From positions 3,696 to 67,695 of the forward strand of contig JAFYWN010000018.1 in assembly GCA_017558005.1 (NCBI GenBank): a stretch of DNA of 64,000 nt. Direction: 5' to 3'. The notes below the pieces were generated by a model that saw only the letters and a list, made by a program, of their open reading frames with translations, was not told where the DNA came from and made no database searches. The first letter of the stretch is position 1. Every line of letters starts with the position of its first letter. A program made the position numbers and the translations under genes. This DNA is from Kiritimatiellia bacterium. GTDB taxonomy: Bacteria > Verrucomicrobiota > Kiritimatiellia > RFP12 > DVOR01. This document shows positions 19,224-61,098 of this stretch, in pieces.

Positions 19224-19514
19224 GCATTATACCACAAATTCGCCCGCCCATACGTATACACGCGCGCAAAATTATTATTAAATTTCTGTGCTCACCCCTG
19301 CCGCAGTGGGCAGGGGCTACGATAATGACAACCACTCCCACAGTCCCACCGTCACTCCTCGAACGCTCTTCATCCCCGCCTTGCCTCGTCACTTCATCTT
19401 CAAAAATTCTTATCTCCACACACACTTGCAGTGTAGCAAAAAGGAAAAGGTAAGTCAAATCGTTATTTTAGAAAAAGGTGAAATAAGATAAAAAACGGGC
19501 TAAAATCAACCCTG

Positions 19515-19597
19515 AATATTAGCGAAATTGCGACTCAATTTCGCTAATATTGCCACCCCAATTTCGCTAGTATTGGGATCCAATTTCGCTAGGATTG
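19515..19597. repeat. Iteron-like 17-bp repeat: one inverted and three direct copies
   Basis: caatttcgctaatattg (19536), caatttcgctagtattg (19559), caatttcgctaggattg (19581); perfect 16-bp inverted copy at 19515-19530. Confidence 0.85.
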
Positions 19598-19637
19598 ACC
19601 CAAAATTTCTCCAGTCCGCCCCCAAAAAAGGGTAAAT

Positions 19638-20061: not shown

Positions 20062-20146
20062 TTTACTGGTGCTCACGGAAAAAGAGGGGAGTGAGAGTAA
20101 GAAGTGAGGAGAAAGAAGCGTGGGGGCTACGTTGTAAATGATTAAT

Positions 20147-20280
20147 CTATCCATAATCTATCCGTAACCTATCTGAGCGACGGGCCGTTGCCCGTCTCAT
20201 CTATCCACCGATCTATCCACTATTGATCCACCTATCCATCACCTATCCATCCACCACTCTATCCACCGATCTACTATCCA
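20147..20280. repeat. CTATCC short-repeat tract, often 11-12 bp spacing, interrupted by a hairpin
   Basis: ctatcc at 20147, 20158, 20201, 20213, 20232, 20243, 20259, 20274; variants at 20169 and 20224; gacgggc-cgtt-gcccgtc hairpin inside. Confidence 0.75.
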
Positions 20281-55986: not shown

Positions 55987-56063
55987 CGGAGCGTAGCGCA
56001 GCCTGGTAGCGCATCTGCTTTGGGAGCAGACCGTCGGGGGTTCAAATCCCTCCGCTCCGACCA
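55987..56063 (+). tRNA. tRNA-Pro (anticodon TGG), CCA encoded
   Basis: Acceptor stem cggagcg/cgctccg, D-arm gcgc-agcctggta-gcgc, anticodon arm tctgc-tttggga-gcaga, T-loop gttcaaatc. Confidence 0.97.
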
Positions 56064-56257
56064 CCTTTTTAAGCGACGATGTATCCATCGCCGCTTTTTT
56101 ATTTTTCCTTCCCATTAAATCCTAATTGTCCCTCCGCTGCGGGTAGGGTGGGGGCTAACTTCGCCACACCTTCAAGCATGGAGCGCCGCACACCTCAAAG
56201 CCTCTTCTGCCAGACGCTCCTCATTTTCTCTGCCCATAAAGCCCTCAATCCTGAGAT

Positions 56258-56278
56258 AAAAGGGCGAAACCCTTTTTT
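56258..56278 (+). terminator. Terminator-like hairpin that is also the left inverted repeat of the array
   Basis: aaaaggg-cgaaa-ccctttttt. Confidence 0.6.
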
Positions 56279-56299
56279 AATTTCTAAGAAAGTGAATCC

Positions 56300-56431
56300 A
56301 AGTTTGTAACAAACTGAACTTGAGTTTATAACAAACTAGATTTGCGTTTGTAACAAACTAGATTTAAGTTTGTAACAAATTGGATTTAAGTTTGTAACAA
56401 ACTGAACTTAAGTTTGTAACAAACTGAACAT
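56300..56431. repeat. Six 22-bp tandem units, each built on the palindrome AGTTTGT-A-ACAAACT
   Basis: aagtttgtaacaaactgaactt and variants at 56300, 56322, 56344, 56366, 56388, 56410. Confidence 0.92.
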
Positions 56432-56708
56432 TCATTTCGCCCTTTTTCATTTCTTCAATACTTTGTACTCTATTTGCCATTCCGTAACTTATTCATTTAC
56501 AATAATTTATCTTGAATATTTTATGGCGGGTAATTTTAGGCTTAAAATCAGTACAATCTGTACTATCCGTGCAAAATTTAAACAGTACAATTTTTGATGG
56601 GGCAAATTAATTTAAGGGAAAATTTCCGCTCGGGAAGAAATCTCAAATACTACAATTTTTGGCCGGGAACTTTTTAGACCTGTTTAGAAAATTCTAGAAA
56701 ATAGTACG

Positions 56709-56782
56709 AAGGGTCGAAGAAATGAAATGTAACAAATTGGATTTAAATTTGTAACAAACTGAACATTCATTTCGCCCTTTTT
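56709..56782. repeat. Second, shorter copy of the array (about 2 units) with the same right-end tail
   Basis: tgtaacaaattggatttaaatttgtaacaaactgaacattcatttcgcccttttt matches units 4 and 6 plus the tail of the first array. Confidence 0.88.
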
Positions 56783-56961
56783 GCTCAGAGGTTTCTCCGC
56801 TATGGAAGTGATCAGTGGTTAATTCATCGCTAAAAATCTCCAAGCCGCAAACAATTTATCTATCCTTAATTTGCCTGAACGACGAGCGCTTGTCCATCTC
56901 ATTTATCCCTAAGCTTTTTTACTAAGAATATAAACGTTCAAGATGAAAAAATACTTTTGAC

Positions 56962-56990
56962 TTGTCTTTTTATTTAAAAGGGTGTAGAGT
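56962..56990 (+). promoter_or_regulatory. Sigma70-type promoter, paralogous to 34318-34346
   Basis: TTGTCT-17 bp-TAGAGT, shared aaaagggtgta.agtata. Confidence 0.65.
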
Positions 56991-57084
56991 ATATGTGAGG
57001 ATATGATGTTAAGATGAGGCGGTACTCTTATATCATGCATTGAAATTATCATGCATTGAAATGTTTTACGAAAAGAGGTGTAAA

Positions 57085-60000
57085 ATGAAAAAGTTTTTAT
57101 TTATGCTTTGTCTACTGATGGGGTATGCCACCCTTCACGCAGACACGGCTAAAGTTAATGGTATTACTTGGCATTACCAAGTCTCAGATGGTGAAGCAAA
57201 GATTTATAACGATTATTACACTTCTGCAATACCATCCTCTGCCAGTGGCGCAATTACCATTCCCTCCACCCTTGGCGGTTACCCTGTGACCTCCATTGGG
57301 GATTATGCGTTTTATGAGTGTGGTCGGTTATCCTCGGTGACGATCCCTGAAGGCGTGACCTCCATTGGGGATTATGCGTTTGAGGATTGTTGGAAATTAA
57401 AAAAGCTTGATATTCCTTCCACTGTTAAATCTATTGGCCGTTACTCCGGAGAGGGAGAAGTATTTGCCTATTCCTTTGATTTGAAAATTACGGTTGCTGC
57501 AGAAAATCCAAACTACACCTCCAAAGATGGCGCATTATTTAATAAGGACATGACCACGTTGTTGCGCGGACCTGGCGCAACAGCGAATTATATAATTCCT
57601 GATGGTGTGACGGATATCGCGGACTTCGCCTTTTGTGGGAGTGAACGTTTAGAGTGGGTTACAATACCTGCCTCGGTGACTTCACTAAGTTGGAGTTCTT
57701 TTGATTCTTGTACATATGTAAGAATTAAGGTAAAAAATGGAAATAAGCACTACATAGCCTCAAGCGAAGGTGCGTTGTTTGATAAAGCAATGACAACGTT
57801 AATTCGTGGACCGGGTAAAACGGCTCACTATAAAATCCCTCACGGTATTGAGGTTATTGGAGTACGCGCTTTTAAGTGGACAGATATCAAAACTGTAGAA
57901 GTCCCTAATAGCGTAACAATAATTGAGGAAGGTGCGTTTTTTTCTTGTACAAAACTAGCCTCTATTTCACTTCCAAATAGTGTGAACAGAATTGAACGTG
58001 GAGCTTTTGATTGTTGTGAAAGTTTAACGAGTCTTACAATCCCTGCAAGCGTGACTATGTTAGGCAGTACGTTTGTTAGTGGCGACTGTGTCAAATTGAA
58101 ATCCATTTACTTTGAAGGAGTGCCGCCCAGTGATGAGTATGGAGATTATAACTGGGCCTCGGACTGGTGGGAAGTTCGCCCCTGGAAATTGACGGGCTAT
58201 TATCCCCCTACTTGTGCGTTAGATTGGGAAGAAATTATCGATAAGGACGGGTACATTTACGACCTTAAAATGGAACTCCTATCTAAGTCCGTTACTATTA
58301 CATTTAACACAAACGGTGGCAATAATCATCTTGGACAAACGGGAAAGATTCAGGAAAAAACGACATTTGGTTCTGTATTAGTAGCGCCAATAGTGACACG
58401 ACAGCATTATACATTTACGGGATGGTCTCCTGCATCGACGGGCATCGCGCCTGCAGTAAATACCACTTACGTAGCGCAGTGGGAGCCAATCATTAATATG
58501 GGTGGGGATGTTGAGCCCCGACAGATTACTTATACGATTAAGAATAAACAAGCCACCATTACCGGATGTTCGGAAAACATCTCGGGATGGTTAGATATTC
58601 CCGAAATGATTGGGGATGCCGTGGTAACTGCTATTGCTGCGAATGCGTTTAAGGAACAAATGGGTTTAACCGCTGTAACTTTCCCAGATACGATTACGTC
58701 AGTTGGAGCAGATGCATTTAAGGGATGTATCAATCTTGCGACTGATAACCTCATAATGCCGTCAATGTTAAAGACATTAGGCAAAGGCGCCTTTACGGGA
58801 TGCATGGCAGAAGCCATTAATCTCCGCCCCGGATCAGTGTTCACAATGGATGATTTGGCAGGATACAAGCTTAATACAACGGCTTCAGGTGCTAAGTTAA
58901 ACGCAAAAACTGGAATTTTAACAGCCACCTTTACAAAGCCAGGCGAGTATGAAGTCGTTTTATCAAAACCTGGATACGGAATAAAAGCGGTATCATTTAA
59001 TGTTGGAGCACTGCCTATACTTTCGCTTTCAATGGACGGTGGCGATGCCAAGTGCAAGGTTAGTGGTGCGGGTGCCTATTTAGTTGGCAGGAAGACCACA
59101 CTGAAGGCTACGGCAAGTAAGGGCTATGTTTTTGCTGGGTGGTACAAGGATTCATACTTTTGGGAATCTTGCGATTCCACTTTGGTGGACTATCGCAATC
59201 CGAGTTACACCTATGTGATGGGTGAAGAGGATACGCAGTTCTATGCTCGCTTCGTCACCAAGGAAGATGAGGCGAATTACGAAATGGGAATTGAACTCAT
59301 TGATGAATTCTACAATTCCTTAGGCGATTATTTACAGGTACGCGCGGGCGAAGTGATGGAGCCAGTTAAGGTTTGGGTTGATTCTTTGACCTTACCCACC
59401 GTAACGGTCACAGGACTTCCGACGGGTCTAAAGTTTGATGCTAATACCTTTACGATTTCTGGTAATCCCACGAAGCCAGGTTTTTATCCGATTACGATTG
59501 AAGTCAAAAATGCCTCAAAGAGTCGTAGCGCATTTGCGATTGTGAACTTGGAAGTTCGCCATTTTGATGCCCATGGGCTTCATGGCGATTGGGAGGATGC
59601 AGAGCCTATTGTGGTGGATGCATTTACAACAGAGCCGTTTAACTTAGAGGATTGGTTTGGCGGTTTCTTCAAAGATATTCCAATTAAATCGCTGAAGCTT
59701 CCTGCGGGACTCACCTACAACGCAAAGACTGGCACAATCAACGGCAATGGGAAATTGAAGTGTGGTTCGTATACAGTCACCTTGACGGATAAAGCGGGTC
59801 AAGTTACCACCTTCACCCTCGTGGCAGAACTTGACGAAGCGGATATGTTTACTTATGAAGACTACTTTACGCCTAACGAAGAATGGGGAGGAGTATATAA
59901 CGGCGTTGTTCAAGGAACTAACACTGATATTTGGTGGATATCAATTTTAAAGTGCAAAGAAGAGTCGGAAAATTGGTGGGATTGGGATCGTTGTCATTTA

Positions 60001-60606
60001 GATATGGCAACGGCTCAGGCTCTGAGTGTTAAGGTTACTGGCTTGCCAAGTGGTTTAAGAGCCAGCTTTGAAAAATATTGTTCGGAAGAAAAGACCTATG
60101 AATGTGACATCTACTTAGAAGGCAAAACTTCTGCAGCGCCAGGCGATTATCCCGTGACCGTTACAATTAGTAATTCGCGAACGGGGCAAGTTGAGCATGT
60201 TTCTTCCGTAATACGCATCTTTCCGGCACCCTCCATTCAAATGAAAAAGAAATTCACGCTTGAGGCAGATGATTATTATGACGAAAACGGAAAACCGCTA
60301 GAGGCGCATGCAGAGGTAACTTATACCATCAATGGAATAAGTGGGACTGCAGCCTATAAGGTGACAATGGAGCGTCCCAATGGAAAACAGTTTACTACGT
60401 CTGGAAGTCTTCCACTAAACGACATTTTTGTAACAGCAACAGTTCCCCCAACCGGCTACCTTGAGTATAGTTATTATTTTTACACTGCAACATCTATAGC
60501 AGAGGCTGATATTGGGATAACACTCAATGAAGATGGGGTAGTCGACTTCTCTTGGGTATGGCTTGGGTATACCCAAGACTATTCATTTAGTTGGTATCCT
60601 TGGTAA
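57085..60606 (+). CDS. Secreted BspA/LRR_5-type leucine-rich-repeat surface protein with InlB-B-like and putative-Ig stalk
   Basis: AAGAGG RBS, signal peptide MKKFLFMLCLLMGYATLHA; VTSIGDYAF / VTIPEGVTSIG / SISLPNSVNRIERGAF repeats; the C-terminal ~500 aa is colinear with the giant protein's C-terminus. Confidence 0.88.
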   Translation: MKKFLFMLCLLMGYATLHADTAKVNGITWHYQVSDGEAKIYNDYYTSAIPSSASGAITIPSTLGGYPVTSIGDYAFYECGRLSSVTIPEGVTSIGDYAFEDCWKLKKLDIPSTVKSIGRYSGEGEVFAYSFDLKITVAAENPNYTSKDGALFNKDMTTLLRGPGATANYIIPDGVTDIADFAFCGSERLEWVTIPASVTSLSWSSFDSCTYVRIKVKNGNKHYIASSEGALFDKAMTTLIRGPGKTAHYKIPHGIEVIGVRAFKWTDIKTVEVPNSVTIIEEGAFFSCTKLASISLPNSVNRIERGAFDCCESLTSLTIPASVTMLGSTFVSGDCVKLKSIYFEGVPPSDEYGDYNWASDWWEVRPWKLTGYYPPTCALDWEEIIDKDGYIYDLKMELLSKSVTITFNTNGGNNHLGQTGKIQEKTTFGSVLVAPIVTRQHYTFTGWSPASTGIAPAVNTTYVAQWEPIINMGGDVEPRQITYTIKNKQATITGCSENISGWLDIPEMIGDAVVTAIAANAFKEQMGLTAVTFPDTITSVGADAFKGCINLATDNLIMPSMLKTLGKGAFTGCMAEAINLRPGSVFTMDDLAGYKLNTTASGAKLNAKTGILTATFTKPGEYEVVLSKPGYGIKAVSFNVGALPILSLSMDGGDAKCKVSGAGAYLVGRKTTLKATASKGYVFAGWYKDSYFWESCDSTLVDYRNPSYTYVMGEEDTQFYARFVTKEDEANYEMGIELIDEFYNSLGDYLQVRAGEVMEPVKVWVDSLTLPTVTVTGLPTGLKFDANTFTISGNPTKPGFYPITIEVKNASKSRSAFAIVNLEVRHFDAHGLHGDWEDAEPIVVDAFTTEPFNLEDWFGGFFKDIPIKSLKLPAGLTYNAKTGTINGNGKLKCGSYTVTLTDKAGQVTTFTLVAELDEADMFTYEDYFTPNEEWGGVYNGVVQGTNTDIWWISILKCKEESENWWDWDRCHLDMATAQALSVKVTGLPSGLRASFEKYCSEEKTYECDIYLEGKTSAAPGDYPVTVTISNSRTGQVEHVSSVIRIFPAPSIQMKKKFTLEADDYYDENGKPLEAHAEVTYTINGISGTAAYKVTMERPNGKQFTTSGSLPLNDIFVTATVPPTGYLEYSYYFYTATSIAEADIGITLNEDGVVDFSWVWLGYTQDYSFSWYPW

Positions 60607-60702
60607 CGATTGCCCAAAAAGATCGCACGACTAAGAAGCTCTGTCAATGAAGGTGTTTATCATTTTAACGCACTAACATTCCAGTTGTGTTCGGGTGCTA
60701 AT

Positions 60703-60738
60703 AAATTAGGGCGACGCGAGTATCGCGTGCCCTAATTT
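60703..60738 (+). terminator. Long hairpin, probable terminator
   Basis: aaattagggc-g-acgcga-gta-tcgcgt-gccctaattt. Confidence 0.7.
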
Positions 60739-61098
60739 TAACTCGGTGGCGAAAGTTAATTGCGTATTGACCGAATCTCCACCCAGTAACCGTCTACACC
60801 TTGATGAAGTGGGGGCCCATTTTAGGATTTCAAAGCAAATTTCCTCCATTGTTTTATGGCGTGAAATGCATGCCGTTGTAATTGTCTGCCTCAAAGGCTA
60901 AGTGGAAATCTTCGTTACCTAGGCTATGTAATGTCGTATGGTCGCGCAACCAAGTGTATTCAAAGACAAATTTCTCTTCCATCGCCCAAGTGAACTACCC
61001 GTCGACAATGTAAATTGTGTAATATTCACTATGAAAAGTGTTTAAAATGTGTTGAGAGGGGTGTGGATGTGGTATACTAGAGGTGTTCGTTAACGGCA

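Follow-up and report, generated by a model that had tools for sequence, protein, structure and literature searches.

Capped arrays of 22-bp palindromes in an uncultured gut Kiritimatiellia lineage and their association with a 283-bp MITE

Described repeat systems and the array family

Closest in architecture to the locus studied here are the BOX elements of Streptococcus pneumoniae (boxA-boxB(n)-boxC), i.e., dispersed, intergenic, non-coding repeats with conserved inverted-repeat-like end modules around variable tandem internal modules (PMC3049150). Their module number is strain-variable, they show strong fold-back and they are clustered with other small repeats (PMC3049150). All of this likewise applies to the array family reported here, which shows the same plan of end modules and variable tandem inner modules. 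In contrast to boxB, which measures 45 bp and is not a simple palindrome (PMC3049150), the unit is here a 22-bp palindrome. Furthermore, the family is confined to one species-level Kiritimatiellia lineage and shows no duplication for its minimal element. We set the array beside BOX by architecture, i.e., by analogy only; the host organisms are not related, and the units differ in size.

REP/BIME clusters are the insertion targets of IS1397, ISKpn1, IS621 and ISPpu9/10 (PMC1525189, PMC2817692, PMC3333891). As there, we find short extragenic palindrome arrays that are specific insertion sites of mobile elements and lie at strain-specific segments. However, the units are direct at a fixed 22-bp period with the same spacer-defined polarity instead of alternating with variable linkers, the arrays have no link to the RAYT-like genes of the genome, and the invader is a transposase-less MITE with its cargo composites, whose 7-bp duplication is centred on the palindrome. 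The array is not a member of the REP/BIME family.

With regard to the invader, IS30 uses nearly palindromic hot spots, targets its own inverted repeats, causes prolific rearrangements and duplicates 2 bp (PMC9333248). Symmetric targets are also preferred here, and, as in IS30, the ends are highly recombinogenic and lead to composites, deletions and shuffled flanks. The MITE (termed B in the following) differs by a duplication of 7 (6-8) bp, and no intact transposase was found, such that we treat IS30 as a lead and not as a membership. Target duplications of more than 15 bp are known from the IS1202 family (PMC10132070). Long direct duplications are present here, too (25 bp at a 361-bp module, 51 bp at the B copy of the window), but TGT...ACA ends and a transposase are lacking and there is no sign of a relationship.

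Tandem repeats phased at about two helical turns are furthermore known from plasmid iterons and centromere repeats (R6K and pSC101 iterons; R1 parC; F sopC). The arrays reported here differ in that they occupy many chromosomal loci, have palindromic instead of directional units and come with no rep or par gene; no match was found among 72,556 plasmids and 50,697 phages. MIRU-type VNTRs of mycobacteria share the many dispersed intergenic loci and the strain-variable tandem unit number, while their 46-101-bp units are non-palindromic, are often translationally coupled in operons and have no caps.

To map the family, we searched a two-unit array pattern in 151 genomes of the order, 185,579 species-representative genomes, metagenomes, IMG/VR, PLSDB (plasmids) and INPHARED (phages). 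Within the order, two genomes carry arrays, i.e., the genome under study (G000; a short-read MAG of 2.05 Mb in 37 contigs, about 90% complete) and its sister genome (G023; MAG JAZUPT01, Candidatus Spyradenecus sp.), which is the nearest among the genomes compared. A third genome (G012) shows one borderline hit with 2 mismatches. JAZUPT01 is the sole carrier among the species-representative genomes, and the array is also present on five contigs of a single metagenome, which stem from a strain with 95-97% identity to the genome under study. The pattern has no match in IMG/VR, PLSDB or INPHARED, and a plasmid, phage or viral origin of the arrays was rejected on this basis. The family is a young, lineage-specific, non-coding interspersed repeat and only as old as the species.

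A genome-wide search for further copies, as proposed by the first-pass annotation of the window (i.e., of the whole stretch of 64,000 nt that was analysed), yielded eight loci in the genome under study (C1:31075, C5:371, C9:35071, C13:181, C15:60422, C20:65670, C35:19942 and the window; C numbers denote its contigs, while L numbers below denote contigs or loci of the sister genome or the metagenome). These GTTTGTAACAAAC arrays have the same caps, an inverted pair of 12-14 bp (AAAAAGGGCGAAAT ... ATTTCGCCCTTTTT), and account for about 0.04% of its sequence. In the sister genome, about 17 array loci were counted, and every copy examined is intergenic. Caps and array occur within at least two sets of flanking arms (window/C9 type, C35 type). 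Among 98 catalogued units, 59 have the canonical core, while the spacers vary. The genome holds other classes of palindromic 22-bp arrays, namely IIb (AAATCCATTGGATTT) and IIc (ATTTCAGTGAAAT), with the GTTTGTAACAAAC arrays being class IIa.

The first-pass annotation had named a neutral local VNTR as the case that would speak against its reading. A VNTR unique to the window's intergenic region would fit the unit number varying among relatives, but it is extremely unlikely given that the same caps and units are found at the eight loci and at about 17 in the sister genome, that insertion polymorphism is observed and that the array moves inside an inserted module (see below).

At six probable orthologous loci, the unit numbers of the genome under study and its sister are 7(+2) vs 3, 3 vs 5, 2 vs 4, 4 vs 2, 4 vs 2 and 4 vs 4, i.e., they are unequal at five of the six, with all counts derived from short-read MAGs. 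In most arrays the cap-proximal unit is a TCTWAGA variant. The arrays are therefore polar, with a stable end unit and expandable canonical units. Unit number would change by slippage or unequal exchange, and such fast change could serve to provide strain markers for this gut lineage. The array is probably an interspersed repeat of BOX/BIME-like type, whose core is prone to slippage and which serves transposons as a landing pad, i.e., a new example of selfish DNA of a known kind. As such, it would be without a dedicated host function, and neighbouring genes may be affected incidentally. The family gives a concrete non-model example, from uncultured gut Kiritimatiellia, of small palindromic repeats that organise genome plasticity.

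The window array and its split by B

Features of the locus are collected in Table 1.

Table 1. Coordinates of the features at the array locus (positions refer to the window)
Feature	Position	Strand	Evidence and remarks
tRNA-Pro(TGG)	55987..56063	+	ARAGORN; Rfam tRNA 64 bits; upstream context
Left arm common to window-type copies (C9:35032-; sister genome L032)	56216..56257		blastn vs own genome; three-way alignment
Head cap AAAAGGGCGAAA	56258..56269		inverted repeat of the tail; 7-mer AGGGCGA at 56261-56267, in 22-bp register
Variant first unit AATTTCTAAGAAAGTGAATCCA	56279..56300		centre TCTAAGA; unit catalogue
Six 22-bp units	56301..56432		15-bp palindrome AGTTTGT-A-ACAAACT (centre 7-mer TGTAACA) + 7-bp spacer
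Tail cap CATTTCGCCCTTTTT	56433..56447		7-mer TCGCCCT at 56437-56443
283-bp MITE B	56445..56727	+	TIR TTTCATTTCTTC...GAAGAAATGAAA; six AGTACA boxes
Sigma-70-like promoter match in B, TTGCCA-18-TACAAT	56474..56503	+	consensus scan; predicted; reads towards the LRR gene
Direct duplication of the array end (TGTAACA ... TCGCCCT), formerly 'element 2'	56728..56778		51 bp (7+2x22); abuts right end of B
Right arm common to C9:35175-35260 and the sister genome	56779..56869		runs into degenerate REP-like TAACCTATCC/hairpin motif
Strain-specific segment with BspA-type LRR surface-protein gene (57040/57086-60606)	56870..61012	+	Pfam LRR_5 8e-60

In the whole array (56258-56447), the cap AAAAGGGCGAAA and the inverted cap TTTCGCCCTTTT (56435-56446) enclose one variant unit, followed by six units of 22 bp. 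The first-pass description of the caps, the six units and their positions holds in our sequence check, and the tRNA-Pro that it had placed upstream was also found. For 56300-56429, Tandem Repeats Finder reports a period of 22, 5.9 copies, 87% matches and 0% indels. A seventh, variant unit (starting with AATTTCTAAGAAAG) lies between the head cap and unit 1. Nine 7-mers start at 56261, 56283, 56305 ... 56437, each exactly 22 bp on, in the order AGGGCGA, TCTAAGA, six times T[G/A]TAACA, and TCGCCCT. That is, the caps are in the same register as the units, because the cap 7-mers fall at 22-bp spacing with the unit centres. When allowing for up to 2 mismatches, GTTTGTAACAAAC has 14 strand-hits in the window compared to 1.85 expected, and none of 100 shuffles reaches 14. 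The spacers of the arrays are 7-9 bp long and themselves repeated, which supports the earlier exclusion of a CRISPR, where unique spacers of about 30 bp are expected. The head cap AAAAGGGCGAAA is also part of a small hairpin followed by a T-run.

The first-pass annotation had described the element as present twice, the second time with a degenerate left end. This was revised, since the supposed left end (aagggtcgaagaaatgaaa) is the right TIR of B. Of this MITE, at least 11 copies with 82-93% identity are found when comparing 56000-57100 to the whole genome (blastn). Its TIR is perfect over 12 bp and imperfect up to about 24 bp. The short palindromes noted between the two supposed elements (agtaca-atc-tgtact) do exist, but they are internal to the dispersed B and not separate features. 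To the right of B, 56728-56778 reproduces 56371-56443 with one mismatch and one 22-bp unit fewer; the 20-mer ACATTCATTTCGCCCTTTTT is identical at 56428-56447 and 56763-56782 (2 matches vs 0.02 expected). B therefore lies between two direct copies of the array end. On the left, it is joined one extra T past the tail 7-mer TCGCCCT, while its right end directly abuts a unit 7-mer (GAAATGAAA|TGTAACA). The 'two elements' are thus one array split by a 283-bp MITE plus its 51-bp flanking duplication.

The orthologous locus of the sister genome (L032) agrees with a single array. Genome and sister are 95% identical across the upstream gene and the tRNA, and the sister locus consists of left arm, cap, a variant unit, two canonical units, tail and right arm, i.e., the array is uninterrupted and neither B nor a second element is present. 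Either B entered in the lineage of the genome under study, or B was lost from the sister by recombination between 51-73-bp direct repeats; both histories fit the two genomes compared. Downstream of the right arm, the sister genome has 366 unrelated bp in place of the LRR-gene segment. Synteny resumes only at window position 61013, so the 4.1-kb LRR-gene segment is specific to the genome under study; it is a difference separate from the insertion of B.

Arrays as joining sites for B and its composites

We surveyed copies of B across 28 genomes of the genus. The distribution is patchy, with B found in seven genomes (5-30 copies in six, a single copy in the seventh). B thus shows the TIRs, high copy number, patchy distribution, target duplication and empty sites of a MITE, with the 7-bp duplication at an empty site coming from B-bounded composites and not from a single B. 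For single copies, we observe the direct flank repeats CAATAGG, CCATGC, GGATGA and TAGTAC. A direct 6-8-bp flank repeat is kept by only about 7 of 45 copies; many copies are therefore inner members of composites or recombined. Simple cut-and-paste insertion does not account for most B copies. The borders of B are synteny breakpoints between the genome and its sister. Two loci (L074 and L075 of the sister vs C30 and C14) were considered as simple insertions or deletions, which was rejected since they are segment replacements and not clean insertions.

Two composites can be compared with their empty counterparts. The first (C1:31172-33025) comprises B, a gene for a 469-aa Alginate_exp-like porin and a right-end fragment of B. 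It interrupts a variant unit at its centre (...caaTT TCTTAGA | composite | TCTTACA AACTGGGATTC...), while the empty counterpart in the sister genome reads ...caaTT TCTTAGA AACTGGGATTC... with a single TCTTAGA, such that the pair reveals a 7-bp duplication of the palindrome centre. In the second (C5:475-1736), two copies of B enclose a 208-aa NUDIX gene. This composite is located at a cap 7-mer (AGGGCGA | ... | AAGACGA AATCAGC...), again with a 7-bp duplication, and its empty counterpart is a metagenome contig (L106, 97% identical over 10 kb) with an intact cap and five units. The hot spots are located where strain-specific genes for surface proteins and metabolism are found.

Further junctions in the sister genome are TGTTACA|B (L052) and AGGGCGA|B|TGTTACA (L086), where in the latter exactly one 15-mer is replaced by B. 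In the genome under study, B is present at four of the eight IIa array loci. Across six genomes, a 22-bp-periodic array abuts an end of B in 9 of 50 distinct copies, compared to 0.065% of random 66-mers. The array is found at the left, promoter-upstream end in eight cases and at the right end in one. Arrays of classes IIb and IIc are hit by B likewise, at the edge of the 7-bp centre, and the outward 7-mers adjoining B lean to YCANTGR. On the level of sequence comparison, the 7-bp centres, including the cap 7-mers, are thereby identified as the positions at which B and the composites bounded by it preferentially join with their ends.

This joining preference may reach further. The arrays could serve as phased landing pads in a gene-capture system built on repeats, in which the ends of MITEs and composites join independently at the edges of the 7-bp centres, duplications and deletions are quantised as 7+22k bp, cargo is delivered preferentially and pads are kept for harmless insertion. 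We consider this tentative extension rather unlikely. With the centres two helical turns apart on one face, duplications and deletions of 7+22k bp would be expected. The observed values of k are 0 (7 bp, two composites), +2 (51 bp, window) and -1 (loss of exactly one 15-mer, L086), where the apparent quantisation (7, 51, -15 bp) refers to few cases in short-read MAGs. Strain-specific cargo (porin-like, NUDIX, perhaps the LRR adhesin region) would go preferentially to the pads, which might persist by channelling insertions into harmless intergenic sites. If the 7+22k rule is true, it would be informative on the capture of periodic targets by a transpososome.

The 22-bp arrays could also be by-products of MITE transposition chemistry instead of independent elements, namely tandem 'pseudo-junctions' or footprints in which a 7-bp target is joined to 15 bp from fused termini of the element. 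The exchange of exactly one 15-mer for B at L086 would fit this. The arithmetic is suggestive (22 = 7 + 15), the IIb 15-mers (ATTTCAAAGTCAAAT, GTTTGAGTTTGAAAC) are bounded by TTTCA/TGAAA-like pentamers that resemble the termini of B, and in genomes without IIa, B copies likewise adjoin 22-bp arrays, which differ in sequence. On the other hand, the IIa 15-mers (AACTGGATTTGAGTT) are unlike the termini of B, and IIa arrays exist without B at empty sites. When we tried the footprint model with the 15-mer as fused B termini, the fit was loose for IIb and absent for IIa. Moreover, we know of no bacterial mechanism that leaves footprints of fixed length, and we consider such an origin distinctly unlikely.

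With regard to the mobility of the arrays themselves, metagenome contig L110 carries a 361-bp non-coding module in which two caps enclose three units and are bordered by a left and a right arm. A direct duplication of 25 bp (CTCTAAAAATAACAGT[T/C]CAAAATTT) surrounds this module, and the genome under study provides the uninterrupted empty site (C10:19024-19049). The array family therefore spreads at least within such modules. For the bare cap-array-cap unit, no target duplication flanks the caps at about 20 loci examined and no empty site was found. Thus, the target duplications and empty sites that the first-pass annotation had suggested looking for in relatives exist for the 361-bp module (25 bp) and for the B composites (7 bp), while none were found for the bare unit. 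The MITE-like reading of that annotation is supported in part: the unit is short, non-coding and multi-copy, and it forms a dispersed, cap-bounded (TIR) family with variable unit number and insertion polymorphism; a parent IS with matching ends was not found, i.e., no cap pair encloses a gene and no transposase is associated.

Regulatory, RNA and enzymatic readings

The first-pass annotation had offered an operator or a centromere-like array, or a structured ncRNA, as functional readings. For the former, a lineage-specific dimeric protein would bind each palindrome on one helix face every two turns, and the array would be a cis-regulatory site, either an operator or an upstream activating array, whose unit number would tune the gene downstream (in the window, the LRR adhesin, through the promoter of B). 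Several observations are as expected from a protein-binding array: the period is exactly 22 bp without indels, the palindromic core is conserved (see the unit catalogue above) while the spacers are variable, and arrays are found upstream of genes or promoters at several loci (e.g., the C15 array about 110 bp before TTGACG-17-TATACT). In addition, the arrays prefer the promoter-upstream end of B, and B points at gene starts, as a gene start follows on the right in 7 of 10 copies that were scorable on that side.

However, unit number drifts freely at the probable orthologous loci of genomes that are about 95% identical, and distance and orientation to promoters are not fixed. The family is restricted to two species-level genomes and one metagenome strain. 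No candidate binding protein was found, and none of the array copies has a rep, par or regulator gene next to it, the neighbours being unrelated housekeeping or surface genes. Furthermore, the unrelated palindromes of IIa, IIb and IIc share the architecture within one 2-Mb genome, such that several dedicated proteins would be needed. We thus regard an operator as unlikely. The centromere alternative finds no support either, given 8 to about 17 loci per genome and the lack of plasmid or phage relatives. Under the preferred reading as an interspersed repeat, an incidental effect on neighbours is conceivable, since the promoter-like site in B is directed towards them; the sigma-70-like motif is kept in most copies. 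For the LRR gene, a regulatory side-effect is conceivable in this sense.

Concerning RNA, the array could act as a multi-hairpin terminator, insulator, mRNA-stabilising element or sRNA, as do some REP, BIME and Correia elements. The predicted folding is very strong and the caps pair, closing the structure (-66 and -62 kcal/mol on the two strands, z -8.0 and -7.7). A T-run follows the structure in either direction, and most copies lie between co-directional genes. Yet, the stability is equal on both strands, as for any DNA palindrome. The equal folding is no sign of a strand-specific RNA, because DNA palindromy gives the same result. Apart from the tRNA, a permissive Rfam scan of the window gave nothing at gathering score. 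Below threshold, the array matches only miRNA models, driven by its palindromes, and the flanks have a few further hits; no family is above noise. The C9 copy is located between divergent genes.

A compensatory change from GTTTGTAACAAAC to GTTTCTTAGAAAC was also considered as a sign of structure. The change is real, but it was discarded as evidence because half-changed units (GTTTCTTACAAAC and alike) occur just as often as compensated ones, and because the copies share their descent. An RNA role is accordingly graded as very unlikely. In summary of these readings, a false lead is removed, as none of our findings indicates a centromere, operator or RNA gene.

As to the enzyme that moves B, a trans-acting DDE transposase, possibly related to IS30, would recognise the symmetric centre and short inverted flanks. 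In the genome under study, no TIR pair of B encloses a transposase. The ORF beside the C20 array is, as we take it from reading its sequence, a GDPD-type enzyme and not a transposase. RAYT-like Y1_Tnp genes are located at C14:83923-85104 and C15:56569-57585, and Y1_Tnp-like genes are also found in the sister genome. A RAYT/REP link to the arrays was rejected, since the RAYT-like genes of the genome under study are flanked by a different palindrome, i.e., by TAACCTATCC...GACGGGCCGTTGCCCGTC repeats and not by GTTTGTAACAAAC units.

B does not qualify as a derivative of the IS30 family: the duplication is 7 bp instead of 2-3 bp, and a remnant is found in place of an intact transposase. This remnant is an about 100-aa C-terminal part of an IS30-family transposase (C2:137640-138150; NCBIfam NF033563, E 4e-19), and it follows a module whose end resembles the left end of B.

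Placement and cargo of the 283-bp MITE

We compared the ends of copies of the 283-bp MITE from six genomes (loci L042-L105). With regard to the 22-bp arrays, these adjoin its left end much more often than its right end, i.e., in eight cases versus one when a strict threshold is applied. Within the same six genomes, the genes on either side of the MITE usually run in one direction, and its right end points to the start of the downstream gene. Two composites bounded by MITE copies or fragments carry cargo genes in the source genome (see table). Close relatives lack both the porin and the NUDIX gene at the corresponding sites.

Genes and remnants in the source genome (C, contig)
Feature	Location	Setting	Evidence
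Alginate_exp-like outer-membrane porin gene	C1:31527-32936	cargo of MITE-bounded composite	signal peptide
Nudix_N/NUDIX hydrolase gene	C5:823-1449	cargo of MITE-bounded composite	
MITE-related end module (GTATTAATTTTCCGTGTTTTTGTACT...), then IS30-family transposase C-terminal remnant	C2:137640-138150		NCBIfam NF033563, E 4e-19
BspA-type LRR surface-protein gene and flanks	window 56870-61012		domains LRR_5, He_PIG, Flg_new
RAYT-like Y1_Tnp gene	C14:83923-85104	outside window	Pfam 24-28 bits (range for both genes)
RAYT-like Y1_Tnp gene	C15:56569-57585	outside window	Pfam 24-28 bits (range for both genes)

A MITE-like end beside an IS30-family remnant

The MITE-like end and the IS30-family remnant on C2 are possibly a relic of the MITE's autonomous parent. 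The source genome holds this segment twice, i.e., on C2 and, as a second copy, from C33:21540 onwards. In the sister genome (Candidatus Spyradenecus sp.), C32:1-509 matches C2:138064-138200 directly followed by a match to C2:136965-137331, an order which suggests that the segment is arranged there in tandem or circularly permuted.

Segments present or absent between relatives

A non-coding module of 361 bp with a three-unit array is found in metagenome contig JAEIGA010005199 (positions 437-797) as an insertion flanked by a 25-bp direct duplication, relative to C10:19024-19049 of the source genome. This module lacks terminal inverted repeats; a tRNA T-arm-like AGGTTCAAGTCCC stands at its start. 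At the locus where the window carries the LRR gene with its flanks, the sister genome has neither, but 366 unrelated bp; synteny is restored from window position 61013 with 98% identity.

Repeats of 22 bp and REP-like palindromes

The most frequent tandem-repeat period of the source genome is 22 bp (TRF, whole genome, 79 rows), and such repeats also occur at window positions 19505-19610. Beside the palindromic classes, AATTTCGCTGATATTG-type units form over 40 arrays, which adjoin TTGTTGATAAC boxes; the motif ATTTCGC also occurs in the caps (inverted ends) of the studied palindromic arrays.

TAACCTATCCATAATCTATCTGACAGACGGGCCGTTGCCCGTCTCATCTATCT-type palindromic repeats stand on either side of the RAYT-like gene on C14, which together look like a classical RAYT-REP layout in a Kiritimatiellia genome. 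Degenerate copies of this type are located at window positions ~56850-56915 and 20135-20206.
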